Virus record (IMG/VR): IMGVR_UViG_3300022660_000043 | DNA: 64,000 bases | Origin: a virus | Taxonomy: Duplodnaviria; Caudoviricetes | Strand: one strand, 5' to 3' | Part shown: positions 11,190 through 50,704 of the stretch, in pieces | Numbering within the stretch: position 1 is the stretch's first letter | Layout of the letters: every line of letters starts with the position of its first letter | Translations under genes and position numbers: made by a program | Notes under the pieces: generated by a model | Seen by the model: only the letters and a program-made list of their open reading frames with translations | The model's database searches: none | What the model was told of the DNA's origin: nothing

Positions 11190-11317
11190 TGGTATATGCT
11201 CCTCCTAAATATATTCCAGAGCCTAGACTATACCATGCAGAGCTCTGTCATTTAATTTAGCGGATAAATTATTACACAAAAAATAAAAGCTAGGTTTATG
11301 CAACCTAGCTAAAAAAT

Positions 11318-11392
11318 TGGAGCTGGCGATAGGAGTCGAACCTACAACCTGCTGATTACAAGTCAGCTGCTCTGCCATTGAGCCACACCAGC
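11318..11392 (-). tRNA. trnT: tRNA-Thr(UGU)
   Basis: Cloverleaf, anticodon arm CTGAC-TTGTAA-TCAG, CCA encoded. Confidence 0.95.
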
Positions 11393-11480
11393 ATGTTGTA
11401 CTACTCAACCCGTTATTTGTTAGTACTCTACTCAGATTCATTTGCAACGGGGAGCGAACTGAACCTTCTGAGTATTTAAT

Positions 11481-11555
11481 TGGGTGCGGGGAGTGGATTC
11501 GAACCACTGACCTCCAGCTTATGAGGCTGGTAAGCTACCACTGCTATACCCCGCA
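11481..11555 (-). tRNA. trnM: tRNA-Met(CAU), initiator-like acceptor stem
   Basis: TGCGGGG acceptor, CCAGC-CTCATAA-GCTGG. Confidence 0.9.
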
Positions 11556-11561
11556 ATATAT

Positions 11562-11851
11562 GGTCCAACTGTTTTTAGTAAATATCTGATAATTTGAAAA
11601 GAAATAAGTATGGACTCTATGTAAAAACGGCTTAGCTGTTAACTGTATTGGTTAGCGGGACGTTTAACCCGCTCATAATTAATTCTAGAAATAAGCATAA
11701 GCTCTACAAAGTTTTTTAAATTTAGGCCTGACTACTATGTATACCTACTATTCATCTAGAAAAGAAATAAGTACAGGCTCTGTTATAATAAATTGGCCAA
11801 ACTGCTACTTTTAAAATCCCAAATTTTATGTAAGAAATAAGTATTGGCTCT
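11562..11851 (-). ncRNA. Tandem array of 4 short bulged-stem RNAs (family A, Y-RNA-like)
   Basis: Units 11562-11618, 11629-11705, 11725-11781, 11795-11851. Each reads AGAG-N4-U-RCU-UAUUUCU...AGY-N4'-CC with compensatory changes; promoter at 11857-11866. Confidence 0.8.
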
Positions 11852-11856
11852 ATATT

Positions 11857-11866
11857 ATTATACAAT
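11857..11866 (-). promoter_or_regulatory. Recurrent sigmaA-like extended -10 promoter (ATTGTATAAT)
   Basis: Same 10-mer also at about 13352, 18366, 19818, 21576, 27079, 53671, 56191, 61320, mostly intergenic and upstream of minus-strand units. Confidence 0.75.
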
Positions 11867-11903
11867 ATATATTTTATTTTTTTGCTATTATTTTAGCAAA
11901 TTT

Positions 11904-12116
11904 TTACCAAGGCATTTCCTCTTCTGCATCTACAATTTCTCTCATTTGACCGGAGAAAATAGATACATCGCGCTCATCTACAATCAAAGCTCTTGACTTG
12001 TATGTATGACCAAGGTCATTGGTAAGTCTATAAGTTTTTCCTATCTCAAGATTAAGGTCTGAAAGAAACTCATAAGTATTCCTTCCGTAATGAAATTCTA
12101 CTTCATAAACTTTCAT
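11904..12116 (-). CDS. Hypothetical protein
   Basis: 70-aa ORF with GAGGAG SD. Confidence 0.7.
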   Translation of the reverse strand: MKVYEVEFHYGRNTYEFLSDLNLEIGKTYRLTNDLGHTYKSRALIVDERDVSIFSGQMREIVDAEEEMPW

Positions 12117-12138
12117 AAGACAAACTCCTCAAAATTTT

Positions 12139-12215
12139 TGGCACGCCTTATTGGATTCGAACCAATGACTTACTGCTTAGAAGGCAGTTACTCTGTCCAG
12201 CTGAGTTAAAGGCGC
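12139..12215 (-). tRNA. trnR: tRNA-Arg(UCU)
   Basis: Cloverleaf, loop CTTCTAA, CCA. Confidence 0.95.
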
Positions 12216-12218
12216 TTA

Positions 12219-12293
12219 TGGCACGCAGTACAGGAATCGAACCCATACCTTGTGGTCCGTAGCCACACGTTCTGTCCTTTAAACTAACCGCGC
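12219..12293 (-). tRNA. trnR: tRNA-Arg(ACG)
   Basis: Loop CTACGGA, CCA. Confidence 0.9.
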
Positions 12294-12307
12294 AAAATAT
12301 AATTTAA

Positions 12308-12383
12308 TGGTACTCGATACGGGATTCGAACCCATGTTTTTAGCGTGAGAGGCTAACTTCCTGGCCAACTAGAAGAATCGAGC
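12308..12383 (-). tRNA. trnE: tRNA-Glu(CUC)
   Basis: TTAGC-CTCTCAC-GCTAA, CCA. Confidence 0.9.
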
Positions 12384-12454
12384 ATAAAATACTAATTGAC
12401 AGGGGCTACATCCCTGTCTTAACAGCATCCTTTCAGACAATTAGTATATATGGT

Positions 12455-13343
12455 AAGAAGGTTAAAAGACTGAGAATACATCTTCATAATTGCTACGGCT
12501 TAATGACCTTATTGATTAGTCACTTTTCCACTTCCTTTTGGGAAGTACCGCTCATGCCTGCAATTCGTCACCCCAGCACAAGGGCTCCAGGCTTGCTTTC
12601 GCCTTTACAGAAACAATTACTCGATTATCACTCCACTATCAACCTTGCGGGCTGTTCGAGGTTGCTACGCCTCTATAGATTCGTTTCAATCAAATACCAA
12701 ATGCTTGTGACACTTGATATCCCAGATTGCTTACCACTCTGGGCTTAAGACACTTTTCTTTGTTTCCAACAATAGGTTTTTACTCATGACATTGTTTTCC
12801 TATGACAACCGCTCTGCCTACTGAGCTACCGGCGTATAAAAGAGATAAGTGCTAATTATCTCTATAGATAAAATTGGCACGCCGGGTGGGACTCGAACCC
12901 ACGCTAAGTTGAGATTTGACAGAAGACAGACTATTGTTGTAGTTCTCACACCTTTTGAGTGCAAGAATGCTACCCGCCTTCAACACTTTCCTTGGCTTCG
13001 TACTCGTATTTCTTATACCCACCGTAGCAGATATAAATGGAAGTCGCCCTTGCTTGCTAAAACTTGAACTATTTTACTTCCTGTAGCTTACCTTACCTCA
13101 TCAAATCCTTTTGCGTTGAAACCAGCTCCTTGCGAGAGCGAAAATAGTTCAGTCAGTTGACCCTACAACTATTTTCTTTTCATTTCATCATTGACAAGTT
13201 AGAACATGGGGTTAGCATATTCGTAAGAATCTTTTCAATTCTTACAGGTCCCGTCACACATTGCCTGAGGTACTGTTCATCACAGCGGAGTCTTGTCAGT
13301 ATACTCCTTTCATTCCCTTACGGGAAGTTATCGGTCAGGCCCG
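12455..13343 (-). ncRNA. Large structured ncRNA, GOLLD-like, containing a circularly permuted tRNA domain
   Basis: About 890 nt with no credible ORF, starting just after the promoter at 13352. Many GNRA/CAAAAGG hairpins and a 3' ...GUAUUCUCAG end resembling GOLLD as recalled; lies in a tRNA array. Confidence 0.55.
12807..12912 (-). ncRNA. Circularly permuted tRNA-like domain
   Basis: T-arm + CCGGCGU-GCCA (12875-12903) precedes ACGCCGG + D-arm (12811-12835); hairpin spacer between them. Confidence 0.8.
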
Positions 13344-13400
13344 TATATTATATTATACAATATAATTTTTAAAATTTTAATTTAATTTTTAAAAAATTTT

Positions 13401-13524
13401 AGGCTGTTTATTTCATTCCATTTACTACAGCTTCTGGTATTCACGACTATGTACAGTTGGACCCTCTACCACTTAAGGATAGCTCCCTCTATCGGTATAT
13501 ACACATGTCTGCTTCGTAGCACCT
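13401..13524 (-). ncRNA. Family B scaffold RNA copy 1
   Basis: AGGUGCUACGAAGC...AGCUGUAGUAAAUGGA...AAACAGCCU. Confidence 0.75.
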
Positions 13525-13528
13525 ATTA

Positions 13529-13615
13529 GTATCTTCAATAATATTCTCGCAACCTAAACTATCACGCCATAGCGGCGATGTGGGATTTCAACCCATGCCT
13601 TTATTCCGTCGATAC
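13529..13615 (-). ncRNA. Permuted tRNA-like (YrlA-like) RNA
   Basis: GUAUC/GAUAC closing stem, T-arm AUGGG-UUGAAAU-CCCAC, loop-closed acceptor stem, D-like arm. Confidence 0.55.
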
Positions 13616-13628
13616 ATTATAAAATAAT

Positions 13629-13786
13629 GAGCTGTTTTCACTTCCATTAACCACTAAACCATTTATACCTGTTCGGGGAGCTTTACTCCATAATTAGAGT
13701 CCTCTGCCGACGGCACATGCTAACACCGACAAGTTCTTAACACTCCGCTTGAGCATGCTGGGACTGTATAAATTCTTAGTGCACTC
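13629..13786 (-). ncRNA. Family B scaffold RNA copy 2 (divergent)
   Basis: GAGUGCACUAA...UUAGUGGUUAAUGGA...AAACAGCUC. Confidence 0.6.
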
Positions 13787-13789
13787 TTT

Positions 13790-13864
13790 TGGTAGCGGGT
13801 ACGGGAATCGAACCCGTCTCTCCGGCTTGAAGGGCCGGCGTCTTAGCCGCTTGACTAACCCGCC
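13790..13864 (-). tRNA. trnE: tRNA-Glu(UUC)
   Basis: Glu-type D arm GTCAAGCGGCTAAGAC; loop CCTTCAA (C33). Confidence 0.85.
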
Positions 13865-14290
13865 ATATTACTTTTACAATCATACCAGTTCAAAAGTAAT
13901 AAACGAAAGGGAGTTTACTCACGGTTATCTCGCCGTCGCTGCTCTGGTATTTCTTAGTCTGCGCAATTATATCACTATATAAGTGAAACCAGTGGGTGTG
14001 AAGGCAGGACTTAAACCTACTTATAACTCATTACTAAGTACATGGTACCGAAGTACATCACCTACTTTTCACTTCAACAAATCGGTCGTTATGCTTACAG
14101 CTGATATCATAACTTACCTATTGTAGCGTTGTCACCGGCATATGCTCCCGGCCGCCTCGATGCTTCGACTTCTTCACGATATTAAATGGCGATCTTAAGG
14201 TCGACCAACCGCACATCCTTTTACGTTGTACACTCTTAGCTAGCCAGTATACAACTCTGACCCAAAAGATATTTGCTATAAACGGCAACG

Positions 14291-14366
14291 TGGCTCGGGA
14301 TACAGGGCTCGAACCTGTGACAACGCGGTTAACAGCCGCGGGCTCTACCAACTGAGCTAATCCCGA
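14291..14366 (-). tRNA. trnN: tRNA-Asn(GUU)
   Basis: CGCGG-CTGTTAA-CCGCG, CCA. Confidence 0.95.
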
Positions 14367-14448
14367 ATATTAATGTGCCAAAAACTCCTCGAGAGTCACT
14401 TTTGCGCCCTCTAACGTGCAAAACAATGGACTTTATGTTTTTCTATCT

Positions 14449-14525
14449 TGGCGACTCCAGCGGGACTCGAACCCGCGGCCTTCAGCGTGACAGGCTGACG
14501 TGATAACCAGCTTCACCATGGAGCC
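14449..14525 (-). tRNA. trnD: tRNA-Asp(GUC)
   Basis: TCAGC-CTGTCAC-GCTGA, CCA. Confidence 0.95.
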
Positions 14526-14547
14526 ATAAAGGGCATTTAGCCCAAAA

Positions 14548-15579
14548 TTATAATTTACCTAAAAATTTATACTGAATAGTTGAATTTCTAATAAGCTCAG
14601 AGTCTAACAACTCCATAAGTTCTTCATAACTTTGTATATTAGATAACATATTCAAAACTATGCTGCTAGAACTTAAATGTCGTAAATACATTTTACAAAC
14701 CTTAATAGCATCTTTTAAATGTACAGCAGAATTAAAATTATTTTTATAAACTAGATGTTTTTTTAAAACAGTTATTAATCTTTCTGAAGTTAAATCGTCT
14801 ATAAATTCGCCTTTTAATAAAGCTAAAGAATCTTGAAAGATAAATGGATTTCCCATAGCGCCTCTAGCAATCATTACACTATCTACTTCACAATACTCAA
14901 ACATTCTTAAAACATCCCGAGCATTAAAAAGATCACCATTACCTACTACAGGTATCTTAACTGCTTTTTTCGCTTTCTTAATATTATCTAGACTATTTGT
15001 ATTACATTTATAAGCATCAGTATAAGTTCTACCATGAACCGTAATAAAATCAACACCACAGCTTTCAGCCATACGTGCAAAATCAACAACATTTACAGAT
15101 TTAGCATCCCAACCAGTACGAATCTTTATACTTAAGGGTAAATTAGTAGATGATCTGGCTGCGCGTATAACTTTTTCAGCTCTTTTTAAGTCTTTCAGAA
15201 AACAAGCCCCTTCATTCAAATTAATGATATTAATATTTGGACATCCCATATTTAAATCAATAACTTTAGGCAATGTAGTAACTTTACGACCTAAATATTT
15301 ACCAGAAGATAAAGCCCCTATACAAAAAGCTGTATCTTTTTCAGCAAAACACCGTAGTTGCACGCCAATTGGCTCGGTACTTTCGTAGTCAATAATAGCA
15401 GCATTATTAAAAGTTGTAGCTAACTTATTCGTCTGCTCCTTAAAAAAACCACGAGTTGATACAAACTCTGTAAAACAAAATTCTGCTCCAAAATCTAAAC
15501 AAATTTTACGAAAAGCTTTATCTGTAATATTTGTCAATGGTGCTAGCATAAGCTTCGGCGGAATAAATTTATTACTCAT
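14548..15579 (-). CDS. dus: tRNA-dihydrouridine synthase (DusB-like)
   Basis: LAPL, IDLNMGCP, KIRTGWD, VHGRT, GNGD, MIARGAMGNP motifs. Confidence 0.92.
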   Translation of the reverse strand: MSNKFIPPKLMLAPLTNITDKAFRKICLDFGAEFCFTEFVSTRGFFKEQTNKLATTFNNAAIIDYESTEPIGVQLRCFAEKDTAFCIGALSSGKYLGRKVTTLPKVIDLNMGCPNINIINLNEGACFLKDLKRAEKVIRAARSSTNLPLSIKIRTGWDAKSVNVVDFARMAESCGVDFITVHGRTYTDAYKCNTNSLDNIKKAKKAVKIPVVGNGDLFNARDVLRMFEYCEVDSVMIARGAMGNPFIFQDSLALLKGEFIDDLTSERLITVLKKHLVYKNNFNSAVHLKDAIKVCKMYLRHLSSSSIVLNMLSNIQSYEELMELLDSELIRNSTIQYKFLGKL

Positions 15580-15599
15580 ATAAACCCCCTAGCTTACTT

Positions 15600-15682
15600 T
15601 GGTGCGGGCGAAGAGACTTGAACTCTTACGTACTGGACACTAGATCCTAAGTCTAGCGCGTCTGCCATTCCGCCACGCCCGC
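15600..15682 (-). tRNA. trnL: tRNA-Leu(UAG)
   Basis: CTAGA-CTTAGGA-TCTAG, variable arm, CCA. Confidence 0.95.
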
Positions 15683-15686
15683 ATAT

Positions 15687-15815
15687 AGTATCCCTAACAA
15701 GCCTCGCACTTGTATCTTTGGATTATCGTCCAATGCTCTAGCCTACCGGACCTCTGAAAACTAAGCTTATACCATTCGTAGCTTTCATAACCTTTTGAGC
15801 TATTATTGAGATACT
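15687..15815 (-). ncRNA. tRNA-like RNA with about 50-nt D-loop insertion
   Basis: AGTATCTC/GGGATACT stem, GCTC-AAAAGG[insert]CTA-GAGC, TTGGA-CGATAA-TCCAA, ACAAG-TGCGAGG-CTTGT. Confidence 0.55.
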
Positions 15816-15920
15816 GAAAATTATACGCCGAACATCCTATTGGCACGCTTTCACCTTGCGGGACTTCTATTGTTTATTTGCTAGCAGAATTTGAACCATT
15901 AACTATGGCGTATTTTTTTC

Positions 15921-15996
15921 TGGTGGACCCAAAGGGGATCGAACCCTTGACCCCAAGCTTGCAAAGCTTGTGCTCTCCCAGCTGAGCTATGGGCCC
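15921..15996 (-). tRNA. trnA: tRNA-Ala(UGC)
   Basis: Loop TTTGCAA, G3:U70, CCA. Confidence 0.95.
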
Positions 15997-16010
15997 ATAT
16001 TTATTTTTAT

Positions 16011-16096
16011 TGGTGGGAGGGGTGGGAGTCGAACCCACTCACCACGAGGGAACGGATTTACAGTCCGCCGCGACTCTCCGACTTCGCCGCCCTCCC
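16011..16096 (-). tRNA. trnY: tRNA-Tyr(GUA)
   Basis: Loop CTGTAAA, variable arm, CCA. Confidence 0.95.
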
Positions 16097-16247
16097 ATAA
16101 AAACTCGTCTTTCCGAGTTGTCAAATAAGGTGACCATAAACCAATCTTAGCCGAAGTTTTAACCTTATTTATCTCTCACTGCCATCATCAATGAAAGCCT
16201 TAGCAAGTTCTTTTTGTGTGCCTCAGATGGAAGACTACACACGGTAT

Positions 16248-16340
16248 TGGCGGAGGCGGCTGGATTTGAACCAGCGGAGGAGTATTAAGCCCCTCGGCTC
16301 CTTAGCAGGGAGCTGGTTTAAGCCTCTCACCCACGCCTCC
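16248..16340 (-). tRNA. trnS: tRNA-Ser(GCU)
   Basis: Loop CTGCTAA, long variable arm, CCA. Confidence 0.95.
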
Positions 16341-16564
16341 ATACCATACAATATAATATACGACATGAGTTTTTATTTTTTAGCTACTTACCATTAATTT
16401 AGCAGATAAAATAAAATAATTTTAATAAAAATATCAGGTCTCTGTTATTTACCTCATACCCTAATGGAATCGAACCATATCCCCTCCCGTTTTTAACCTG
16501 ATTAACGCGGCGAGAATGACCCTCTGAGCGCAGAATCGAACTGCAATAACAGTGTTTTATGTAA

Positions 16565-16816
16565 TTAGATATGAAACAAATTATAAATGCACTTATAAAT
16601 GAACATACATGGTGATACAATACCAAGGGCAATCCAAGTAAGTACACAACCAACCCAGTTCATTTTAGTGCCACGCTTTAGAGAGGCAGGTGATAATAAT
16701 TTATATTCTTTCTTATTATCACAACAACTTTTCCATTCTGCACCTTCAATAGCACATGGAAAAATCAAAATAAATGCAAAGAATATAATAACAGCTGCCC
16801 ATTGCTGAGGTGCCAT
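16565..16816 (-). CDS. Small membrane protein
   Basis: 83 aa, two hydrophobic segments. Confidence 0.65.
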   Translation of the reverse strand: MAPQQWAAVIIFFAFILIFPCAIEGAEWKSCCDNKKEYKLLSPASLKRGTKMNWVGCVLTWIALGIVSPCMFIYKCIYNLFHI

Positions 16817-16947
16817 TAAAGCTGTGCCTCAAGAGCTCTGCGCTTGCGAAGCTGCTTCTTAATGATAGGTGCATTCAGAGTCTCGCCACGAGACTTAAGA
16901 ATACCAATTCTGATATCAATAGCCTTGATCTTATCTTCTACAGTCAT
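16816..16947 (-). CDS. Small basic protein (43 aa)
   Basis: Not in track: MTVEDKIKAIDIRIGILKSRGETLNAPIIKKQLRKRRALEAQL; stop overlaps next ATG. Confidence 0.65.
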   Translation of the reverse strand: MTVEDKIKAIDIRIGILKSRGETLNAPIIKKQLRKRRALEAQL

Positions 16948-16952
16948 AATTC

Positions 16953-17480
16953 TTAATTCCCTTCATTTTGATTTGTTAGTGGTACATTAATACCTTGAAT
17001 AAACCCGCGAGCAGGTGGTACCCTTACAGCATTACTTCCAGAAGTAGGTGGAGCTGGAGGTTTTTGAGGACTACCTTGAGGTTGATATGGACGTCCAGAA
17101 CCATTATTACCTTGTGGCCCTGCTGCTTGATTGGGCTGCATATTTGGTGATCTCTGAGGAGGATTATTTGGCATTCTACCAGCCATAGGAGATAGAACCC
17201 TACCAGATCTCATATCAGGCGGCTGATGCTGATTATCATTTTCTGCTTTAAGCTTATCCATAATCAGCATATTTATTGTTGCTCTTATATTCAGAAGATC
17301 TTGAACAGATAAAGCATCTTTTTCAAGCTTTGTAATATCTTTAGGTAAAGCAATAATTCTATCACCATATAGCTTTCTAAGTTGCTGCATTGAATTATTT
17401 AGCCCTTGAGGACTAGTACCTAATTTATAATACAATACATGAATCTTCTTTTCTTCTGTTTCTTTAAGAATTTTTTCCAT
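16953..17480 (-). CDS. Hypothetical protein with Pro/Gln/Asn-rich disordered C-terminus
   Basis: 175 aa, translationally coupled to the peptidase gene. Confidence 0.75.
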   Translation of the reverse strand: MEKILKETEEKKIHVLYYKLGTSPQGLNNSMQQLRKLYGDRIIALPKDITKLEKDALSVQDLLNIRATINMLIMDKLKAENDNQHQPPDMRSGRVLSPMAGRMPNNPPQRSPNMQPNQAAGPQGNNGSGRPYQPQGSPQKPPAPPTSGSNAVRVPPARGFIQGINVPLTNQNEGN

Positions 17481-18310
17481 TACTTTTTCTTAAACAAGCG
17501 GCCAAAGAAATTAATAATCTTATTAAAAACTCTTACATACCACTTATCGGTAGGTCTTACGATATTCTCATCATCTACAATAGAATCAGTAATTAACCAA
17601 GCTTCGTACCACTTGAAATCAAAAGGAAGAATAAACTTTCCTTTACGACCCCATCCATGACCCCAGCTGTTCTGAACAAGCCAACCTTGCTCATTCCAGC
17701 CATAGATAAGTACTGCATGACAGCCACGAGTTTCAGGATTCTCAAAAGTATAGACTCCATCCTTAAGCTTATAATCTACATGCCAAGGCATTGAAATAAG
17801 CACAGGTCCATACTTCATAAGAGCCTGCTTAACACCAGTAGTAGAATTTACTTGCATATAAGTTGAGACTCTGTGAGGATAAGCTACTTCCTTAAGCTCT
17901 TCTAATTGAGCATTTACTGCTTCCATAGCTTCCGGACAATCATGGTTGCCTCTAAGCTTCGTGAGCGGTACATCTCCGACTTTTTGAAGAGTCTTAAGTG
18001 CCTCTCTTGGATACATGCCCTCACCTACATAATAGCCATCTGGGCGATAGCCATAAATAAATTCTGTACTGAAAATAGTATTTTCACCAGTCTGACGCTT
18101 ACTGTGGAACTCTACAACTGAAGAACAAGCATGAGCTACACAGCTTCCGGTACTTCCCTGATCTTTCACTGCGATATTTACATTAACATTTTCATTTGCT
18201 GTGCAATCAAACGTATCTGGAAGTGGTGTTTCTGCTACACATGCAAACTTATAATCTCGCACATCATATGGAGAAATTAGATTTGTAAACCTACGATCTT
18301 CAACTCGCAT
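17480..18310 (-). CDS. Papain-like cysteine peptidase (C1)
   Basis: QGSTGSC (catalytic Cys), GCHAVLIYGW (His), QNSWG (Asn). Confidence 0.92.
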   Translation of the reverse strand: MRVEDRRFTNLISPYDVRDYKFACVAETPLPDTFDCTANENVNVNIAVKDQGSTGSCVAHACSSVVEFHSKRQTGENTIFSTEFIYGYRPDGYYVGEGMYPREALKTLQKVGDVPLTKLRGNHDCPEAMEAVNAQLEELKEVAYPHRVSTYMQVNSTTGVKQALMKYGPVLISMPWHVDYKLKDGVYTFENPETRGCHAVLIYGWNEQGWLVQNSWGHGWGRKGKFILPFDFKWYEAWLITDSIVDDENIVRPTDKWYVRVFNKIINFFGRLFKKK

Positions 18311-18617
18311 TAAAGAACTCCTTAAAATATAAAAAAATAATATTGAAGCTAAAAGACTTCAATATATTATACAATATATTTAATATTATTTTAAGCATTT
18401 TGCCAGAGGTATTTCAGATAGCTTTTAGCGTACTACATTAAAAATGTCTACTTGCGTTCAACCCCAGTCTTGCTATCAAGGCGTTTGGACTCACTTTACT
18501 AGCTTCCTACCTGTAATATGATACAAGTCTATGTAAAGGTTCGGTGATGCCACTTGTATACCGCTGCTTTCCCTCTTCCCTTGCGGTGACCGTTTATTCT
18601 TAGCTACGGACAAACTT

Positions 18618-18693
18618 TGGAGCTGACACCCAGACTTGAACTGGGGACCTCATCCTTACCAAGGATGTGCTCTACCAACTGAGCCATGCCAGC
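18618..18693 (-). tRNA. trnT: tRNA-Thr(GGU)
   Basis: CATCC-TTGGTAA-GGATG. Confidence 0.95.
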
Positions 18694-18696
18694 AAA

Positions 18697-18772
18697 TGGT
18701 ACAGCCCTAAAGAGTCGAACTTTATGTGCCGGCTTATAAGGCCGGTCCTCAATACCGTCGAGGACGAGCTGC
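18697..18772 (-). tRNA. trnI: tRNA-Ile(UAU)
   Basis: CCGGC-CTTATAA-GCCGG, atypical D arm, CCA. Confidence 0.8.
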
Positions 18773-18788
18773 ATAATATAATATAAAA

Positions 18789-18865: not shown

Positions 18866-18868
18866 AAG

Positions 18869-19270: not shown

Positions 19271-19273
19271 ATA

Positions 19274-19349: not shown

Positions 19350-19356
19350 AAGAGCA

Positions 19357-42239: not shown

Positions 42240-43658
42240 TTACATCTCCGCAAGGACATCCTCTGCTACGTCAGCAGTAGACTCGGCAAGCTTCTCGCCA
42301 ATAATTCCCTCAAGAACCTTGAAAGAGAAATTTTTATGCTTGAAAGCAGCAAACTTAGGACGGTTTACGATACGTACCACTACACCCTCACGAGTATGGG
42401 TCTTGCCAACAGGATCAGGACCATCGAAGTAGTCCTCAGCGCAACGCATAATCATATCTCCAAGCTCACCATCGCCAATAAGGTAATCATGATCATAGCC
42501 ATTAGGTGCAGTGAAATGAAGTCTATCCTCAGAAAGAGTAGCCTTACCAAATACAAGAACAGTCTTTACACCCATCTGCTCACAACGGTAACGCATGAAG
42601 TCAGGAGTATACTCTACAACCTCTCCGTCCTCGTTAGTCATAGTCATACGATATACGTAGATATCTGACTGAGGCAGTGCATTTTCAACACCAATTTGGT
42701 TATGCTCTTCATCAAGATAATACCCAACACCATTAGGAGCACAGCCATAGGAGAACACAGTCTCCTTACCATACTGCTTTACAAAGTCTTTACCAAGCTT
42801 CTCGTTATTACCATTACCCATGATAGGTGCTCCAGTGTGAGTAAAGCCTACGACCTCGTAATAAACAGTCTCACCCTTCCAAAGCTTTCCTACAAAAGTA
42901 TCATGATGCTGCTTACGGAACTCATTAGAGCCATAGAAGCCGCCATCAAAAGTATCGAGTACTACACGACGAGTACCAGATACATAGCCCCAGTCATATA
43001 CAGGCTTACCAGGTCTATGAAGAATACGATCCATAATAGATCTCTTATAACCAGTAAGTACCTTCAAATGGCCAGTACGCTGGGAAGTACCATGCATCTT
43101 AAGAGAAAGCTCAAGCTCATCGCCAACCTTGAAAGCTCCAAGATTATACGCAAGCTGCTCAGTATCTGCATGCTCTGCAAAGGTAGGTGCAATAGGTGCC
43201 TTAAACTTACGAGTATGATTACCCTCAGATACATGACCTCTACGTGCCTGAGTACGAGGGATGTACTTAGTGCAAATCTCCTCACCATTAAATACATCAA
43301 TACGGTCTCCTACTCTAAGGGTAGAGATATCACCAAAAGACTCAAGACAATGGAGAGGAAGGAAAAGACCATCAGACTTCTCGCCTCTAAGCTTAATAGC
43401 AGTTACATTTCTCTTATCAGGATCCATGTAGCCACCAATATTATTGCCATCAGCATCCTTCTTTCTAAGAAGGTTATTAGCCTCAGCAAACTTCACAGAA
43501 AGCTGGCCACCGGTAGGGAAATATACACCAAGTTGGCCCTCAGTATAATCAAGAGATACGCAAACAGTGTTACCGAACACATCAGCAAGCTGCAAACGAT
43601 CTGCATTAGGATGCTTTCTAACATCCTTCAAAGTAGTTACAATAGCATAATAACTCAT
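42240..43658 (-). CDS. ATP-dependent RNA ligase with N-terminal tRNA-binding OB fold (DRB0094-like)
   Basis: HPNADRL, KLRGEKSDG, KMHGTS (motif I), YYEVVG, EGVVVR, FKHKN. Confidence 0.88.
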   Translation of the reverse strand: MSYYAIVTTLKDVRKHPNADRLQLADVFGNTVCVSLDYTEGQLGVYFPTGGQLSVKFAEANNLLRKKDADGNNIGGYMDPDKRNVTAIKLRGEKSDGLFLPLHCLESFGDISTLRVGDRIDVFNGEEICTKYIPRTQARRGHVSEGNHTRKFKAPIAPTFAEHADTEQLAYNLGAFKVGDELELSLKMHGTSQRTGHLKVLTGYKRSIMDRILHRPGKPVYDWGYVSGTRRVVLDTFDGGFYGSNEFRKQHHDTFVGKLWKGETVYYEVVGFTHTGAPIMGNGNNEKLGKDFVKQYGKETVFSYGCAPNGVGYYLDEEHNQIGVENALPQSDIYVYRMTMTNEDGEVVEYTPDFMRYRCEQMGVKTVLVFGKATLSEDRLHFTAPNGYDHDYLIGDGELGDMIMRCAEDYFDGPDPVGKTHTREGVVVRIVNRPKFAAFKHKNFSFKVLEGIIGEKLAESTADVAEDVLAEM

Positions 43659-43690: not shown

Positions 43691-44590
43691 TTATACATTG
43701 TGCCAGTGTACATTTTCAAAGTCTGCCACAAAAATAAGATGATTTCTTTCTAAATAAATATTTTTAAAGTCTTCAAAATAAGAGGTATTGAATCCAAAAG
43801 TAGAAGGCATGTCAACAAAGAATCTTGCAAGCGGGTCAATGTGCCCTTCATACGTATAAAGCTTTGCAGGACATACCTTACCAAAGCGTTCGAGGTAACT
43901 TCTACAGAAATTACGGTATTGATGCTCAGGCATGATTACATAACAGGGAAATTGCTCGGAATCCTTAATCATCTGCTGAATCCAAGCAGTTTTTCCGCAT
44001 CCTCGACCTGCACGGAATTTATGTACTCTAGCAAAAGGAGGACGACCAAAACGACCTCTTACAAGCTCTTTAACTAGAATATAAAACTCTTTCCAGGAAC
44101 CTACTCGATAATCCTGCACAGTAGAATTCTGATTATAAGGTGCATCAAAAAGAACCTTAATCCCCTGACAACCTACAAGATTGTGCTCTGCATCATCGAG
44201 AATAATGTCGCAACGAATAAGTGACTTATTATAAGTAATAATTACATTCTCTTTATCTAAAAATGGAAAATGAGCAAACAAGCACTTCTTAAGCTTATAA
44301 GGCAAAGTCTTATAATGTGAACTTGTAATGACATAGATCTCGTGACCTTCTTGCATCAAACGTGCTACCACATCTACTGCCTCTGGTTTAATCTTTACCT
44401 CATCCCAAAACTCAGGTGTGTTAAGAGGTTCAAAAAGATCTGCCTTAGACAAAAAAGGATAGCATTTAGCGAGCTCCCAATCTTTAACCTCGTCAACTGC
44501 TACCGACCTACCATGCTTTCTATTTAGCCACTCAATCCAAGTATCAAGCATGCTATTAATAGTGCTGTCAAAATCAATTCCGATAACCAT
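43691..44590 (-). CDS. 5'(3')-deoxyribonucleotidase (HAD) with C-terminal P-loop-like extension
   Basis: IDFDST, IILDD, FDAPYN; AGRGCGKT in the C-terminal part. Confidence 0.85.
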   Translation of the reverse strand: MVIGIDFDSTINSMLDTWIEWLNRKHGRSVAVDEVKDWELAKCYPFLSKADLFEPLNTPEFWDEVKIKPEAVDVVARLMQEGHEIYVITSSHYKTLPYKLKKCLFAHFPFLDKENVIITYNKSLIRCDIILDDAEHNLVGCQGIKVLFDAPYNQNSTVQDYRVGSWKEFYILVKELVRGRFGRPPFARVHKFRAGRGCGKTAWIQQMIKDSEQFPCYVIMPEHQYRNFCRSYLERFGKVCPAKLYTYEGHIDPLARFFVDMPSTFGFNTSYFEDFKNIYLERNHLIFVADFENVHWHNV

Positions 44591-44617: not shown

Positions 44618-44736
44618 TGGCCCAAGACCCAGGACTTGAACCTGGACGCTACCCTGATCATTGATAGCTGATCTATTCCGACCTGCGTCTACCGTGATAG
44701 GACTTACCAACCTGCCTATACTTCCGCCAGCCTTGG
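44618..44736 (-). ncRNA. tRNA-Leu-like RNA with D-loop hairpin insertion and abnormal anticodon arm
   Basis: CCAAGGC/GTCTTGG-GCCA; GCGGAA[insert]GGTAGACGC; T arm CCAGG-TTCAAGT-CCTGG. Confidence 0.65.
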
Positions 44737-44809: not shown

Positions 44810-44826
44810 ATACAGCAAAAATTTAA

Positions 44827-44918
44827 TAGCTGTTCGTCTAACTCCATTTACTACAGCTCCTGTACCCAAGCATGACGCATTCTCAAAGCGTTTCTTGCAT
44901 CTTGGCTTTGTGGCACTA
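44827..44918 (-). ncRNA. Family B scaffold RNA copy 3
   Basis: UAGUGCCACAAAGCC...AGCUGUAGUAAAUGGA...GAACAGCUA. Confidence 0.75.
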
Positions 44919-44939
44919 TTAAATTTAATACAGATAGGG

Positions 44940-45056
44940 GTGAAGGAGATGGGATTTCGTTACCCACAACACACCCGATATTTACTCAGGCCGCTCTTAT
45001 TACTTATCGCTCTTTACCTCAAGCTTTATAACTTCGCAATTGGCGTACTCCTTCAT
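44940..45056 (-). ncRNA. Degenerate tRNA-like RNA
   Basis: TGAAGGAG/CTCCTTCA stem, D-like CGC-CAATT-GCG, T-like GTGGG..CCCAT. Confidence 0.45.
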
Positions 45057-45416
45057 TTGGGTTGCATGCAAAAAACTTATTTTATTCGTTCAGAAAAAAC
45101 AAGCAAAAACTCCTAGCTGTCAATACTTGACAAATCGTATATAGCTGCTTCCGAGCCGCCAGAAGCACCGCTAGTACGTCTCTAAAACCCAGTCATAACC
45201 GCCTACTGACTGCTAGCGCCCACTTTTCTCTAGACCTTCCCACCTTAGTCCTACACAGTTCCTTCTCATCAATCCCAGTAGATAAGCGGATCTACTGCTG
45301 TGCCCACAAATTTAGGTTGCGCTCTCCCTACAGCTTATAAACTGTTGGGCGGAGTATCCTCACAAAAATCAAAAATCATTAAAATAAGGTCTCCTTCCTA
45401 AATAAAAGATTTCAAA

Positions 45417-45979
45417 GAGCTGTTCATCTCACTCCATTTACTACTGCTGCTTCAGGGACACCGCTTTCCGATACAGGCTTGCCTAACGCTCAATCGGCTT
45501 CGTAGCACTCTTTGATAATAAGTCTCTTGTTTTGGCAGTCCAAGCGAAGACTACGGGGAACTTCCCACGTTCAACACCAAATCAGACCCGGCTGTTTAAC
45601 TCTTTCCATTACCACAGCTTCTTACAACCTCACCAAATACTTCGCTCATGATCTCCATATTCAGCGCTTCGTGGCACCCAAGTCTCAGCAACTGTCAAAG
45701 CTCGTTGCACTCTTCCCTTCTGAGTTTGTTTCTCTACGAGTCTCAGCCGGTTGGCGTATTGTTCGTAGTGTAGGCTGGTTTTCGCATTATCCATTTACCA
45801 CAGTTTTCCTCCGTTCATGCTTGACTTCCGGCTTCGTGGCACCTACTTGTGAGCTGTTCATTGCACTCCATTTACCACTGCTCCAGCTTCCGTCTCTTAA
45901 TCCCATATTGGCATTGGCTTCTTAGGCCATCTCTTAACTGCCGTATCTACATTAAGTCCATAGGCTTCGTGGCACTCAC
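45417..45979 (-). ncRNA. Array of four family B scaffold RNAs (45417-45510, 45589-45679, 45770-45846, 45849-45979)
   Basis: Each NNGUGCYACGAAGC-[variable]-GYWGURGUAA(A)UGGA-N7-9-AA(C)CAGCNN; promoter-like TGTATTATATAAT just upstream. Confidence 0.8.
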
Positions 45980-46009
45980 ATTATATAATACAATAGGGAG
46001 CTTAGAAAT

Positions 46010-46725
46010 TTAAGCTCCCTTTTTATAATTTTTCCAATCTTTTTTCCACTGCTTTGAGTATTTGTCAAGAATATGTTCCACAATAACAGCATTACCTTGT
46101 TCTATACCACAAGATCCAGCAAAATACCAATCATCTCCGAGTAAATAATCACAGAGTATGTGTATTGCAGTCTGAGCATTAAGTGGTGGAGGATAAATAC
46201 CATAAGTAGTATCCTCAATATTATCTCTCATTAAGTCAAAGCTCTTGTTGTAAATATAATTCTCTTTCTTTTTCACGCTCCAATACCATCGCTTTCATTT
46301 TTGCTAAATCAGCTCCATCAATATATACAGTTCCACAATTTGCACAAACCAAAGGCTCTACAGAAAAACCAAAATAGCGATTAGTTGTAAGCTTTAAGTA
46401 ACAGCAAGCATCAGTAGCGTCTGATCTAAGCTTTAAAACTTGATTATACCCACAATTAGGACAACCTCTAATATTTGTCATATTTAACTCCTTATCCTGC
46501 ATCAAACATAAGTTCAGGGATCTTAGTAGTCTTCTGTCCAGGTGTAAGATTAAACTCTGTATCAAATCTGAATCTAGGTCTAAAATCACCATCTCCATCT
46601 GCATAAAAACCAACAAGAGAAGAATGTCCTAAACTACCATTTCTTTGAATATACCTCAAAAAAGAACAAAAGTCATCAACCCAGCGCTCTTCCATAGTAA
46701 CTTCAATATTAAACGTTTTTTCCAT
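46010..46725 (-). other. Three small hypothetical genes (about 46010-46230, 46236-46481 zinc ribbon, 46492-46725)
   Basis: Tiled ORFs. Confidence 0.65.
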
Positions 46726-47291
46726 TATACTATATCTCCTATATTACGTACTTCTACTTGACAAGACTGCATTACTCTAAGTGCTGCTACGTGGGCATCC
46801 GGAGTAGTACCGGCACAACAAGAAGCATCGCAGCTAATAACCGTCTTTTCACCCCAAACAGACGCCTTTAAGATAAGCGCATTAGAAACCACACAAATAT
46901 CAGTACAAAAACCAATAAGCTCAATCTCTTCAATAGGCTCTTTTTCAAGCAGCTTCTCCGGTACACACATTTCAACTCTATGATAAAGCTCAAGATCACC
47001 GAAACGGGTCTTAGTTAGCCGCCAACGACCCTCCAAAAACTCTTTAAGCTCAGGCACAATATACCAACCTTCAGTCTCATCAATACAATGCTTAACAGGC
47101 AGGTACTTTCCTTCCATAGTTTTATCATAATCGTCAAAATGTGTATCCTGCGTAAATACTACTTGCCAGCCTTCATCAATTCGCTGCTGAATCTTTTCTT
47201 TAATAACAGGGATTTTAGCCTGAGCTTCAGGATTTGCCAGAGTACCAGTCACAAAATCATTCTGAACATCAACTACCAGTAATACTTTCAT
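46725..47291 (-). CDS. Isochorismatase/nicotinamidase-family cysteine hydrolase
   Basis: VDVQNDF, QDTH, HC, GFCTDICV. Confidence 0.92.
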   Translation of the reverse strand: MKVLLVVDVQNDFVTGTLANPEAQAKIPVIKEKIQQRIDEGWQVVFTQDTHFDDYDKTMEGKYLPVKHCIDETEGWYIVPELKEFLEGRWRLTKTRFGDLELYHRVEMCVPEKLLEKEPIEEIELIGFCTDICVVSNALILKASVWGEKTVISCDASCCAGTTPDAHVAALRVMQSCQVEVRNIGDIV

Positions 47292-47292
47292 A

Positions 47293-47715
47293 TCACACCT
47301 GCTTTACAAGAGCTGCAATCTTAGACTTGTCAAAACGGTTACCAACTTCTTTTGCGGTAAGACCGATTACTTTGCCCGTGTTAGGCTCAGTCTCCTTGAT
47401 ACGCTTAATGATAGTAATAACTTCCTCCTCACTCATCTGCTTAGGAAGATATTGGTCAAGCTCATCAATAATGAACTGAGCTTCAGCATATTCATCATCT
47501 CCAATTGAATAAACTGAAAGAAGATCGTTTCTTTCTTTATATTCCTTTACAATAAGATTAGTAATCTGTTCATCAGTAAGAGGTAATTCAAACTGACCAG
47601 ATTTCTCTGCAACAAGGATTCGTTGTTTAAGATACTCATAACAAGTTCTTTTTTCTGTATCCCTATTCTTGAATGCTTCTTTCCATTTTTCATTAATAGT
47701 TTCTTTCAATGACAT
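47293..47715 (-). CDS. YqeY/GatB-domain tRNA-binding protein
   Basis: MSLKETI..WKEAFK.RD, YLPKQMSEEE, GKVIG. Confidence 0.85.
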   Translation of the reverse strand: MSLKETINEKWKEAFKNRDTEKRTCYEYLKQRILVAEKSGQFELPLTDEQITNLIVKEYKERNDLLSVYSIGDDEYAEAQFIIDELDQYLPKQMSEEEVITIIKRIKETEPNTGKVIGLTAKEVGNRFDKSKIAALVKQV

Positions 47716-47716
47716 T

Positions 47717-49764
47717 TTAATAATCCTCTCTCAATTCCTTTGATATCTTAGGCAAAGGCTTTGCATTCTCTTTCTTTAAAATTTTATTAGGCGTAAATCT
47801 AATATTAATTGTACCAAAACTACAATCTCCCTTACGCCAACCGTCTTCTATGGTATACTTGTTTCGTAGCTCTGTCGCCCATTTATAACCCTGAGCATGA
47901 ATATAATACTCAGAGTCCTTTGAACGACAATAATAAATTTGTGCATCTCCTTCTTTTACAAGAGCAGCCTTAAAAAACCAGCTATGCCAGAGTTTTTTAA
48001 GCCAAATATAAGTATTACCTACTAGTAAAACAATACCTCCAGCAATACCTGCAGAAGCCACAATAGCATTCTCTTCATTATGCTGCCAGATATAATAAAA
48101 GATCAATGAACAAACTTGCCATATAATAATACCAATAATAATTCCAATCCAAATCATAACTTAATCCTCAAATACAAGTCTAGGGTCAGGTTTTACATAA
48201 TGTGTATCTTTAATATCTACGTAGGACTGACTCAAAAAATCATCCTCTAGTAGCTGTTTTTCCAGAGTCTTCAGTTTCTCTCTTAAGTCAGCATTCTCCT
48301 CAAACAAAGCAGTCTCGTGTAGACCATAACGCTGTTGATCAGTCCATAGCTTTGTAAGCACAATAAGCTGAGGCAAATACTCAAGAGCTCCTTTACAATA
48401 GCCTATGAGCTCTTTATCTTGATGAACAGGTGCCTTAGAACACTCCAGGTCTAATAGATTACGCAAGTTCTCTTGCTGGTCTTTTAATCTTATAAGTGAA
48501 TACTTCCCGATCATAGATCATCTACCTTTATAAAAATATCTTTGTAAGCCTCTGCAATATTACCTTGCTCATCTAAAATTCCACAAGCTTGAAGCTTTTT
48601 AATGGCTGCTTGCTTATTAACAAGGCTTGCAGGCGGATTAATGTAGCACCAATACAAAATATTATTTGCACATAGCAGACTAGCAAATAAAGCAGTGTTA
48701 CCCTTAGAAACCCTCAGTACTTTCATTTCAAGCTTATTATATGGATCTGTATAGCAGACCATCATATAATATTCTTTATCAGTATTAATAACGGGCTGAT
48801 CTACAGACAATGCTATCCACTGGAAAGCAGGATAATATTTATTATTTGCAGACGGGCCAAAAGTAGTTTGCTCTACCTCGACGTTTTCTTCTTGTATACA
48901 AGCAGTCCGCTTATATTCATAAAAATCGCACTTACTCATATCGCCACCACAAGAACAGATCTCCGGCTCTTTAACCCCATCACAATAATCCTTACCACTA
49001 TGCAGGTTAAATACCTTACCAGAGCGAAAACAATTACATTTCGCCATTTATTTCACCTCGTCTTTGTTTAATAATTTCAGTTAAAGCATTACTTGCTGCT
49101 TCTTTAGAGAAAAATACAAGTCTGCCAAGGTCATGGCTCGTTACTACGGTTCCTTCATGCTCTCTAGAACACCAAAGTTTTTCAATCTTATCTTTTACGA
49201 ATACTACTCGATCAACTTCATACTCATAGATGTCGTAAAAGCCAGGCATATCAAAAAGAATCCAGCATTTCTCTGGAATAGCCTCTAATCTATAGCCCGG
49301 CTCCTGAGTCTTCTCAAGATACTCGAGCAAATCACCGCAGTCCGAAGAAAAGCTCATAAGATCTACATTCTGTACTTCAATAGGCTTAGTAGCCCAAAGC
49401 TCTCTGCCAGCTCTCTGGCCCTGGAAAAAATCAAATTTACGCACAATCTCAATAGCTTGCTCTTTACTGATCATCTCATAATTCTCCCTCTAAACTGATG
49501 TAGTTCCTCCGGTTTATCAAAGTACTCTTTAATAAGGTCTCTAAGCTCTCTATACAAGGAATTACCTCTCTGAGCCGTACTAGATATAATACGATATTCA
49601 ATAATATATCTATCATGCTCCGTAGTGCCACACTGAAATTCAATTTCAAATGCATTACAAAATTCACCAACTTTTTCAAGCTGCTTCATATGCTTGGCTT
49701 CCCAGGCTTCCATATCAGTTACATCCCAATCCAAACAAAATGCGCCTCTAATAAATCTATCCAT
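47717..49764 (-). other. Five hypothetical genes (47717-48157 membrane, 48161-48514, 48511-49047, 49034-49474, 49471-49764)
   Basis: Tiled ORFs, several with ATGA-type overlaps. Confidence 0.7.
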
Positions 49765-49767
49765 AGT

Positions 49768-50181
49768 TTACCTCACAAATTCTAAATTTTCAGAATACCA
49801 CATGTCCCAATTATCTGGCGCCTTGCACTCAAATAAATCTACTGGCATAAGATCCCAGCATCTATGTTGGTCTGATTCAAACCAGATGATCTTACAAATT
49901 CGACCATACTTGGTTTTTACGCAATCTCCCTCATAAAGCTCACGACCGTTCTTATCTTTTGCGCCCACAGAACGTTTTGCAGTCTTAATAAGCTTTTCTC
50001 CACAGTAAGGACAGAACCCTATAGTGCAGTCAAGCCTATTTCTATACATAGTATTCCAATAGCTTATCACTAATTTAACTTCTTCACCATCTTTCATAAG
50101 CTCGATTTCTGTACCATTATAGTCTGCAGCCAATCTACTATGAACATGATCTTCTGTTAATCTTCTACATACGTCGCACAT
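49768..50181 (-). CDS. Zinc ribbon + YopX-like protein
   Basis: FCPYCG; KDKNGRELYEGDCV. Confidence 0.7.
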   Translation of the reverse strand: MCDVCRRLTEDHVHSRLAADYNGTEIELMKDGEEVKLVISYWNTMYRNRLDCTIGFCPYCGEKLIKTAKRSVGAKDKNGRELYEGDCVKTKYGRICKIIWFESDQHRCWDLMPVDLFECKAPDNWDMWYSENLEFVR

Positions 50182-50704
50182 TCGTCAAATCTCCTGTAAT
50201 CCTTCTGTTTTCTTTCCGGAAAAGATCCTCCATGGCCGTTGTCTTTATTAAAGATCTCTTCAAACCTTTCAAATTCCTTAAGAGTAAAACCAACTCTATA
50301 GTCAGTCTGGATAAAATGACCTATCTGCTCAGGAAGCATATCACAATCATCATCGATAATAACATAGTAATTAATCTCAGGATGCTCTTCAAGATAAGTC
50401 TTTATCTCAAAACCCCTGCACTGCTCCCTAATTTCTTTAGTACGTCCTAAAATCTCAATTCCAGATCTCAGACCACCATTAATAAGACACTCTTTGTAAT
50501 TCTCATCCCAGCGCCAAGTAGAAGTTACTACAATATCATAATGAAACTTCTTGCACGCTTCAGAAAGCCATTGTACAGCCTGAAAATTATTTACTTTATT
50601 ATCCTTAGGAAAATTATAAGAGCACCTTGTACCCTTCTCATTCCACATCGGAGTATTTACGACCCCATCTAATCATAGTCAAGAAAAACAACTCTTGACT
50701 TCAT
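50157..50704 (-). pseudogene. HAD-family phosphatase (Swiss-army-knife RNA-repair HAD-like) split by a 5-nt insertion in the DxD motif
   Basis: MKSRVVFLDYD* then DGVVNTPMW... in another frame; downstream VTSTWR, RG.EI, YVIIDDD motifs. Confidence 0.75.

Follow-up and report, generated by a model that had tools for sequence, protein, structure and literature searches.

A phage tRNA island and a nearby operon of putative RNA-repair enzymes as a probable composite system of tRNA maintenance

Cleavage of tRNA is a widespread antiphage strategy, used by PrrC, PARIS, Cas13a, Cas12a3, Schlafens and OLD. The Pnkp and Rnl1 enzymes of phage T4, which repair tRNA-Lys cleaved by PrrC, are to our knowledge the sole phage repair answer that is understood experimentally. 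We analyzed a 64,000-nucleotide stretch of viral DNA (IMG/VR record IMGVR_UViG_3300022660_000043; Caudoviricetes), which we call the window. Within it, a 39-kb span (11,300 to 50,704) carries tRNA genes, tRNA-like RNAs and an operon of putative RNA-repair enzymes, and a preliminary description had presented this span as an integrated tRNA-defence and RNA-repair system. We read gene identities, operon packing and synteny from the sequence and compared them with relatives taken from IMG/VR and ENA contigs, which carry G and L numbers below.

The span shares with the T4 pair a 5' kinase, candidate 3'-end phosphoesterases and an ATP-dependent RNA ligase beside phage tRNAs. Unlike T4 Pnkp, which has a HAD phosphatase, the window kinase is fused to an HD domain, and unlike Rnl1, which seals anticodon loops, the window ligase is of the Rnl5 type, which has an N-terminal OB domain and seals nicks in duplex RNA. 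The window also adds a Thg1-like and an AEP-like polymerase. The concept of phage tRNAs accompanied by an RNA-repair kit is already published. A survey of jumbo phages (Iyer, Anantharaman, Krishnan, Burroughs and Aravind 2021, PMC7824862, section 3.4.9) described tRNAs with ATP-grasp RNA ligases, polynucleotide kinases, and HAD "Swiss-army-knife", calcineurin-like and HD phosphoesterases, as well as sporadic Thg1 and occasional TROVE proteins, and read this repertoire as a countermeasure to tRNA-cleaving immunity. Its text names Rnl1 and Rnl2 but not Rnl5, mentions AEP solely as a replicative primase, and contains no mention that we found of an operon uniting Rnl5, Thg1-like, HD, metallophosphoesterase and AEP-like genes.

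Several other described systems resemble parts of the span. The Rnl5 ligases of Naegleria gruberi (NgrRnl) and Deinococcus (DraRnl; TIGR02306) share with the window ligase the N-terminal OB domain, a KxHG motif I and an Rnl2-like core, but the window ligase is about 130 residues longer. Its closest cultured homologues, with about 49% identity, are in the Tsamsa-like Bacillus siphophages PBC2, Kirov and Thrax1. In PBC2, a kinase-HD homologue directly follows the ligase gene and a YqeY homologue lies 8 kb off, whereas the ligase and kinase-HD genes of the window are 11 kb apart; the 41-kb stretch of PBC2 that we examined had no Thg1-like or AEP-like homologue. The Salmonella rsr-yrlBA-rtcBA locus (Ro60, Y RNA and RtcB) also has YrlA-like permuted tRNA-like RNAs near RNA-repair genes. 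The preliminary description had drawn a parallel to such Ro60/Y RNA loci, and this parallel did not hold up: there is no TROVE/Ro60 and no RtcB among the roughly 70 window proteins scanned or in the relatives G001 and G002, and the YrlA-like RNAs of the window score below the Rfam gathering score.

We interpret the span as a composite tRNA-maintenance island that would supply, heal, rebuild and seal tRNAs, and not as one obligate machine; from what the sequence offers, we consider this reading somewhat probable. Supply would come from 33 tRNAs, the tRNA-modifying dihydrouridine synthase (Dus), a GOLLD RNA and seven or more RNAs that derive from tRNA but do not decode. For healing, the kinase-HD fusion would phosphorylate 5'-OH ends, and the HD domains, the metallophosphoesterase and the HAD_SAK_2 protein are candidate removers of 2',3'-cyclic or 3' phosphates. 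For rebuilding, the Thg1-like 3'-5' polymerase would refill 5'-truncated acceptor stems by using the 5' phosphate made by the kinase, and the AEP-family polymerase may fill recessed 3' ends. The Rnl5-type ligase would then join 3'-OH/5'-phosphate nicks in duplex RNA. The outcome would be a tRNA pool that stays usable during infection even though tRNAs are cut, be it by host defences aimed at tRNA or by the MazF-like RNase of the phage. Such host defences are documented, and some are described as cutting tRNA tails. In this scheme, which substrates the enzymes use, that they cooperate and what damages the RNA are our inferences.

The center of the span is an 11-gene operon that runs from 44590 to 37341 on the minus strand, as do all genes of the window, with neighbours that abut or overlap by 1 to 20 nucleotides. 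The order is an NT5C-family nucleotidase gene, the Rnl5 ligase gene, two small genes, a 78-amino-acid gene, the Thg1-like gene, the HD gene, two small genes, the metallophosphoesterase gene and the AEP-like gene. The 1.4 kb of DNA directly upstream is free of open reading frames and carries a small structured RNA in five copies as well as a CCA-ended tRNA mimic. Downstream of the operon, at a distance of 6 kb, is the kinase-HD gene, with a 100-amino-acid gene, a gene for a TerD-domain protein and the tRNA island after it; the HAD_SAK_2 gene is 6 kb upstream. All ten proteins named in the preliminary description were recovered (Dus, kinase-HD, metallophosphoesterase, HD, Thg1-like, OB-fold ligase, YqeY, HAD_SAK_2, AEP/PrimPol-like and TerD). 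The operon with its Rnl5, metallophosphoesterase and AEP-like genes is kept in three relatives, L093, L097 and L112, in a shorter form in L112. L093 and L097 share the order NT5C, ligase, two genes, Thg1-like, HD, then metallophosphoesterase and AEP-like, then kinase-HD, one gene and the TerD protein, and NT5C is at the operon start in relatives as well. An adenylosuccinate synthetase gene is inserted between the HD and metallophosphoesterase genes of this operon in L093 (7434-8618).

ARAGORN called 33 tRNA genes, on the minus strand only, which cover all 20 amino acids, as had been claimed, and 32 of the 33 are supported by Rfam at the gathering score (Table 1). We also scanned for strict T arms (a 5-bp T stem with a TTCRA loop), for which chance would give about one match per strand. 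The scan returned 40 minus-strand matches versus 0 on the plus strand and recovered 31 of the 33 tRNAs, each with a perfect T arm and a perfect 7-bp acceptor stem. Eight matches fell outside the called tRNAs, seven of them in non-coding DNA. These eight belong to three YrlA-like modules, the mimic at 44618-44736 (which ARAGORN did not call as a tRNA), an insert at 25056-25170, the split tRNA-Gln(UUG) that carries it and two orphans. The window thus has at least seven tRNA-derived, non-decoding RNAs. In the scheme of the preliminary description, such RNAs would act as decoys. The preliminary description had counted more than ten mimics, a number that would need weak candidates from relaxed ARAGORN settings; we left these calls out of the tRNA and mimic counts because many of them fall within coding DNA.

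The three YrlA-like modules score 33 to 35.5 bits, about half the Rfam gathering score of 69. The module at 26956-27055 has a perfect T arm at 27005-27032 and the YrlA-like order of T arm, acceptor hairpin and D arm. Another is embedded in the GOLLD RNA, with a T arm and GCCA at 12875-12902 and a YrlA-like sub-match at 12783-12929. The occurrence of tRNAs within the GOLLD linker is already in the literature; the window copy lies in the tRNA island and scores above the RF02032 gathering score, and GOLLD is also present in G001.

These RNAs bear on the possibility that the island serves translation autonomy alone, by matching codon usage or replacing host tRNAs lost in a phage-driven shut-off, with the mimics as functionless decaying copies and the repair genes there by coincidence. 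The phage tRNA set covers nearly every codon box used by phage genes, a phage MazF-like RNase lies at the island edge, and some weak tRNA-like matches could be relics, all of which would suit this explanation. Against it, the YrlA-like modules, CCA-ended mimics and inserts have retained flawless T arms and acceptor stems and are found again in relatives, compensatory changes mark the small-RNA family that precedes the operon, and relatives preserve the succession of tRNA island, TerD protein and kinase-HD gene. We regard translation autonomy alone as very unlikely.

Within the composite island, sealing would fall to the Rnl5-type ligase. Its N-terminal OB domain was matched by PF21189 (residues 7-102, the PHA02142 OB domain) and aligned with residues 6-128 of NgrRnl (E 7e-5). 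Motif I is KMHG, in which K187, H189 and G190 are nearly invariant, and a profile also matched the T4 Rnl2 nucleotidyltransferase domain. Against TIGR02306, the protein scored 48.9 bits, below the cut-off of 151.15, with the first half of the profile alone aligned. Because this score is far under the cut-off, we classify the ligase as a divergent relative of Rnl5 and not as an equivalog.

The Thg1-like protein scored 111.9 bits against PF04446 (cut-off 29.2). As a whole protein, it matched the Bacillus thuringiensis Thg1-like protein (TLP) BtTLP (PDB 4kgk/4kgm) over its full length at 1e-65, compared with 1e-5 to 1e-8 for eukaryotic Thg1, and it differs from BtTLP in being phage encoded; 164 phage records carry a Thg1-like gene. 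Two roles for this polymerase were considered and rejected. The first was addition of G-1 to tRNA-His, the role of eukaryotic Thg1, but the tRNA-His of the window (22123-22199) encodes G-1 at position 22199 opposite C73. The second was 5' editing of mismatched acceptor stems, but the stems of the 31 scanned tRNAs are perfect. The Thg1-like polymerase would thus be dispensable for maturation and editing, which leaves the repair of 5'-truncated tRNAs. Published work on TLPs describes templated 3'-5' addition of nucleotides to 5'-truncated tRNAs in vitro (PMC3701042, PMC4820378). The same tRNA-His has no encoded CCA, with CGG after C73, whereas CCA is encoded in all other tRNAs of the T-arm scan except an atypical second copy of tRNA-Ile(GAU) (26209-26285).

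The putative end-healing enzymes are spread over the operon and its flanks. The kinase domain of the kinase-HD fusion matched AAA_33 (4.5e-19), KTI12, the Clostridium thermocellum Pnkp kinase (4jst, 1.3e-7) and TIGR04075 (3e-16), and it resembles PSTK/KTI12. The C-terminal half has H..HD..H motifs and matched HDIG and CCA-enzyme HD domains. The gene is kept in G001 and L093. The stand-alone HD phosphohydrolase is 72 to 80% identical to its counterparts in relatives, and the HAD_SAK_2 gene is at the equivalent position in G001, L003 and L005. In another relative (L111:15083-17179), an AAA_33 kinase, a metallophosphoesterase and a T4 Rnl1-type ligase domain are fused in one protein of at least 757 amino acids, a Pnkp-like all-in-one healing and sealing protein.

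The last gene of the operon encodes an AEP/PrimPol-like polymerase that belongs to a family of several hundred homologues with no Pfam model. In 24 homologues, the residues that correspond to the AEP motifs DxD, sGxGxH and hD (D188/D190/D192, G231-G232-Y233-H234 and N283-D284) show little or no variation, and they fall on predicted consecutive strands. The gene overlaps the metallophosphoesterase gene in four contexts. A CCA-adding enzyme gene adjoins it or lies within 3 kb in six contexts and at 6 kb in one more, HAD_SAK_2 is close by in two of these, and an Rnl5 gene is 2.4 kb away in one context; two contexts had no neighbouring gene for a tRNA-end enzyme. We also asked whether Rnl5 and the AEP-like gene strictly co-vary and rejected this, since 12 Thg1 loci had Rnl5 and 0 had an AEP-like gene within 10 kb. 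The company that this family keeps with tRNA-end enzymes appears to be new.

The AEP-like protein is also the starting point for a different explanation, in which the span is a loose auxiliary region of independent genes. The AEP-like polymerase, metallophosphoesterase and Rnl5 would then form a LigD-like trio that mends breaks in phage DNA with short patches of ribonucleotides, and NT5C would regulate the nucleotide pools. Fold matches of the AEP-like protein include the LigD polymerase domain and Prim-PolC, and an ATP-dependent DNA ligase gene is two genes from the AEP-like gene in L095, L103 and L111. Rnl5 enzymes (DraRnl and NgrRnl) reportedly seal nicks with an RNA 3'-OH strand. NT5C is a deoxynucleotidase family, genes for a thymidine kinase and an NrdG-like activase lie just beyond the span, and the components differ among close relatives. 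Yet the tRNA- or RNA-end enzymes, CCA-adding enzyme or HAD_SAK_2, are nearest to the AEP-like gene in 7 of about 13 contexts, the operon includes a tRNA-specific Thg1-like polymerase, and tRNA-like RNAs precede it. We consider a DNA-mending region of this kind clearly unlikely.

One tRNA of the island is interrupted. The tRNA-Gln(UUG) gene carries its insert between nucleotides 34 and 35; the insert brings a 7-bp acceptor stem, a T arm and an ACCA end of its own, and the acceptor stems of both the insert and the interrupted tRNA pair. When the insert was deleted in silico, ARAGORN called a canonical 77-nucleotide tRNA-Gln(UUG). This tRNA is the sole phage tRNA for CAA, which occurs 140 times in 48 genes (CAG, 235 times). 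Short nested inserts with a CCA end also interrupt tRNAs of relatives, at 9586-9740, 10811-10947 and 11447-11645 in L090, at 12279-12412 in L113 and at 5358-5511 and 6966-7111 in L114. The T arm of most of these inserts (GTGAG TTCAART CTYAY) resembles that of the tRNA-Gln insert, and this similarity across tRNAs of several relatives suggests that the inserts are a recurrent, possibly mobile family. The Lak megaphages, another phage group, have tRNA introns that may themselves encode tRNA (Devoto et al. 2019, PMC6784885). Unlike those introns, inserts of the window type share T-arm sequence across several tRNAs and genomes, and as a recurrent family, nested tRNA-like inserts appear to be new.

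The inserts raise the possibility of self-maturation, in which the enzymes mainly serve to mature unusual transcripts of the phage itself. The insert would be excised by RNase P and 3'-end processing, the halves would be held together by their stems, and the phage ligase could join them, because this processing would leave a 3'-OH and a 5' phosphate. The structure of the tRNA-Gln insert, the restoration of the only phage CAA reader by its removal, the six inserts in relatives and the Lak precedent argue for such a process, and since tRNA-splitting inserts recur in relatives, a splicing role for the ligase is possible. The insert T-arm pattern is present in G001 and G002, which bear ligases, and absent from G004, in which no ligase was matched. 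It is, however, also absent from G005, which has ligases, and G001 and G002 carry inserts without Rnl5, so that no specific ligase is tied to the inserts. The window has one certain interrupted tRNA, and a Thg1-like polymerase, three phosphoesterases and a kinase exceed what splicing of RNase-P-type ends would need. As the main purpose of the enzymes, self-maturation therefore seems unlikely to us, although it is the most credible competitor of the composite island.

The DNA upstream of the operon contains a small structured RNA of about 100 to 135 nucleotides. Its parts are a helix strand P1, UGCCAC-GAAGC, a variable hairpin, GUGGUAAAUGGA, AACAGC and the closing strand P1'. This pattern had 6 matches in the window versus 0.15 expected. 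Six relatives have the RNA ahead of their NT5C-Thg1 operon, and it occurs within tRNA islands as well; helices P1 and P2 show compensatory changes. No Rfam family matched it at E values up to 1, and a conserved small RNA before the operon appears to be new. In several relatives, a TATAAT box precedes P1 by 5 to 7 nucleotides, and a U-run often follows P1'.

A bolder proposal joins these leads, with the operon as a phage pathway of tRNA splicing and rebuilding. Inserts would be excised by tRNA-end processing, Rnl5 would join the halves, the AEP-family polymerase would fill recessed acceptor 3' strands in a mirror image of the 5' rebuilding by the Thg1-like enzyme, and the small RNA would be a partner or regulator. 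We hold this proposal to be quite doubtful.

The relatives showed which parts of the composite island stay together. The nearest complete relatives are 220 to 233 kb long, and no DNA-level match to 17 kb of the window was found among 50,697 phage records. G001 (complete, 233 kb) is syntenic for HAD_SAK_2, NT5C, Thg1-like, HD, kinase-HD, the TerD protein, GOLLD and 13 tRNAs and has a divergent metallophosphoesterase at the equivalent position. Rnl5 was found in L093, L097, L112 and L101 and is absent from G001, G002 and L002 through L006. G001 has Rnl1-like and PF09414 ligases elsewhere in its genome, and the ligation function is thus kept by non-orthologous genes. Searches by tblastn with window proteins missed the G001 metallophosphoesterase and the L095 HAD_SAK_2, both later found by Pfam, so absences that rest on tblastn alone are soft. 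The preliminary description had named independent distribution of the components as a finding that would speak against its system, and this is partly what the relatives show: the Thg1-like, HD, NT5C, HAD_SAK_2 and kinase-HD genes, the TerD protein, the tRNA island and GOLLD are a stable core, and Rnl5, AEP-like, Dus, YqeY and the toxin are swappable cassettes.

Of 79 viral loci with a Thg1-like gene, 45 have a kinase-HD gene and 12 have Rnl5 no more than 10 kb from it, although these counts are not independent because most of the loci are from one clade of phages of about 150 kb from a single metagenome. The TLP reaction needs a 5' phosphate supplied by a kinase, which fits the frequent neighbourhood of kinase-HD and Thg1-like genes even where there is no ligase.

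A number of observations weigh against the composite island, and the non-independence of the 79 loci is one of them. G001 is without Rnl5, AEP-like, Dus, YqeY and MazF-like genes. Searches of G004, a complete member of the 150-kb clade with Thg1-like and kinase-HD genes, for Rnl5 and three further ligase families returned no match. The Rnl5 gene has a strong predicted promoter of its own (43719-43690). Genes of unrelated function (Tad8, isochorismatase, NT5C, two GIY-YIG endonucleases and a papain-like peptidase) are within the span; nucleotides, NAD or signalling molecules are the targets of NT5C, isochorismatase and Tad8. The TerD protein has no demonstrated link to RNA repair and counts against one integrated system. 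The preliminary description was therefore right that families for RNA/tRNA end healing, refilling and sealing are assembled here, six of them in one operon kept by three relatives, but the gene losses in G001, the separate ligase promoter, the unlinked TerD protein and the interspersed nucleotide, NAD and signalling genes do not agree with one 39-kb unit.

Table 1. Features of the span and copies of the small RNA in relatives (window positions unless a contig label is given)
Feature	Position	Strand	Evidence or remark
tRNA island, 32 canonical tRNAs	11318..26830	-	ARAGORN, RF00005; encoded CCA in nearly all
GOLLD RNA	12467..12982	-	RF02032, 156.2 bits vs gathering score 150; full model length
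Small structured RNA, sixth copy	13396-13528
Dihydrouridine synthase (Dus)	14548..15579	-	PF01207 4.7e-57; inside tRNA island
Papain-family peptidase	17480-18310	-	inside tRNA island
GIY-YIG/NUMOD homing endonuclease	23158-23799	-	in tRNA island
Interrupted tRNA-Gln(UUG)	25014..25205	-	115-nucleotide insert (25056-25170)
YrlA-like permuted tRNA-like RNA	26956..27055	-	RF02553 35.5 bits, E 3e-4, below gathering score
MazF/PemK-like endoribonuclease, N-terminal extension	27092..27727	-	PF02452 1.2e-7; phrog_1936
Second YrlA-like permuted RNA	27714..27847	-	RF02553 33.7 bits, E 1e-3, sub-threshold; T arm 27796-27823
661-amino-acid protein, helical N-terminal half and C-terminal TerD domain	28271..30256	-
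Polynucleotide-kinase/HD-phosphohydrolase fusion	30648..31589	-	putative end healing
Lone second tRNA-Ile(UAU)	36805..36881	-	ARAGORN, Rfam; just downstream of operon
AEP/PrimPol-like polymerase	37341..38318	-	start overlaps metallophosphoesterase stop
Calcineurin-like metallophosphoesterase	38315..39088	-	PF00149 3e-11; candidate 2',3'-cyclic or 3'-phosphate remover
Stand-alone HD phosphohydrolase	39682..40242	-	phrog_28876 2.3e-53; weak PF01966; weak YhaM; abuts Thg1-like gene
Thg1-like 3'-5' polymerase, bacterial TLP type	40243..41052	-	PF04446 2.6e-32
ATP-dependent RNA ligase, Rnl5 type, N-terminal OB	42240..43658	-
NT5C-family HAD nucleotidase with C-terminal extension	43691..44590	-	PF06941 1.1e-27; first operon gene
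CCA-ended tRNA mimic	44618..44736	-	perfect T arm, 7-bp acceptor stem, GCCA end; directly upstream of operon
Small structured RNA, five tandem copies	44822..45981	-
Tad8, type II Thoeris inhibitor	46010..46276	-	PF25189 4.2e-20; counter-defence
Isochorismatase-family protein	46725..47291	-	PF00857 8.7e-23
YqeY (GatB-like)	47293..47715	-	PF09424 5.5e-19
HAD_SAK_2 phosphatase, "Swiss-army-knife" RNA-repair family	50157..50648	-	PF18143 7.9e-17
GIY-YIG/NUMOD homing endonuclease	50715-51569	-	beside HAD_SAK_2
Small-RNA copies in relatives	L093:42-631, L097:167-621, L005:8382-8779, L003:7915-8027
Small-RNA copies in relatives	L002:1227-1326, L113:11135-11262, L115:12813-12924

In all contexts that we looked at, including L113, L114 and L115, the gene of the helical-plus-TerD protein sits immediately upstream of the tRNA island. 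The protein is highly conserved, with 64 to 69% identity across hundreds of contigs. Its C-terminal half matched the TerD beta-sandwich fold. A Ro60 role for the protein was considered and is unsupported: the TerD half alone gave a clear fold match, the N-terminal half gave none, hhalign with a DUF2828 protein had a probability of 0.1, and the fold-search lists of the protein included no Ro60/TROVE chain. A 550-amino-acid open reading frame antisense to the gene on the plus strand is probably spurious. In G001 (166-177 kb; L089:5997-16643), an inserted block of tail-fibre-like genes (Mtd_N, YadA-head and BspA-type LRR) separates the repair operon from the kinase-HD region.

The other genes of the span have functions of several kinds. 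The interspersed genes encode Tad8, an isochorismatase, YqeY, two GIY-YIG endonucleases, a papain-like peptidase and the MazF-like RNase. The MazF-like gene is flanked by two YrlA-like RNAs, and in L115 (9333-9635), a YafQ/ParE-like toxin gene is present instead, between the TerD gene and the tRNAs. On one side of the Tad8 gene are the isochorismatase and YqeY genes, and on the other is the array of non-coding RNAs. In L112, Tad8 is among genes for NAD synthase, NAPRTase, isochorismatase, an NadR-like protein and PnuC, beside the ligase. Based on these NAD-salvage neighbours, the isochorismatase-family protein may be a nicotinamidase. Profile searches assigned no family to proteins of 134, 139, 147, 190, 206, 152, 142 and 143 amino acids, and the sole match of a 239-amino-acid protein was phrog_9300, a family of unknown function.

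We consider the system as a whole of moderate interest, and the AEP-like family, the inserts and the small RNA rank higher as leads. The locus offers a compact, conserved operon of expressible enzymes for defined tRNA lesions, with the kinase-HD fusion nearby. It links the purpose of phage Thg1-like proteins, an AEP-like family near tRNA-end enzymes and inserts that split tRNAs. If the ligase does join the split tRNAs, it would be a phage-encoded ligase that splices tRNA.

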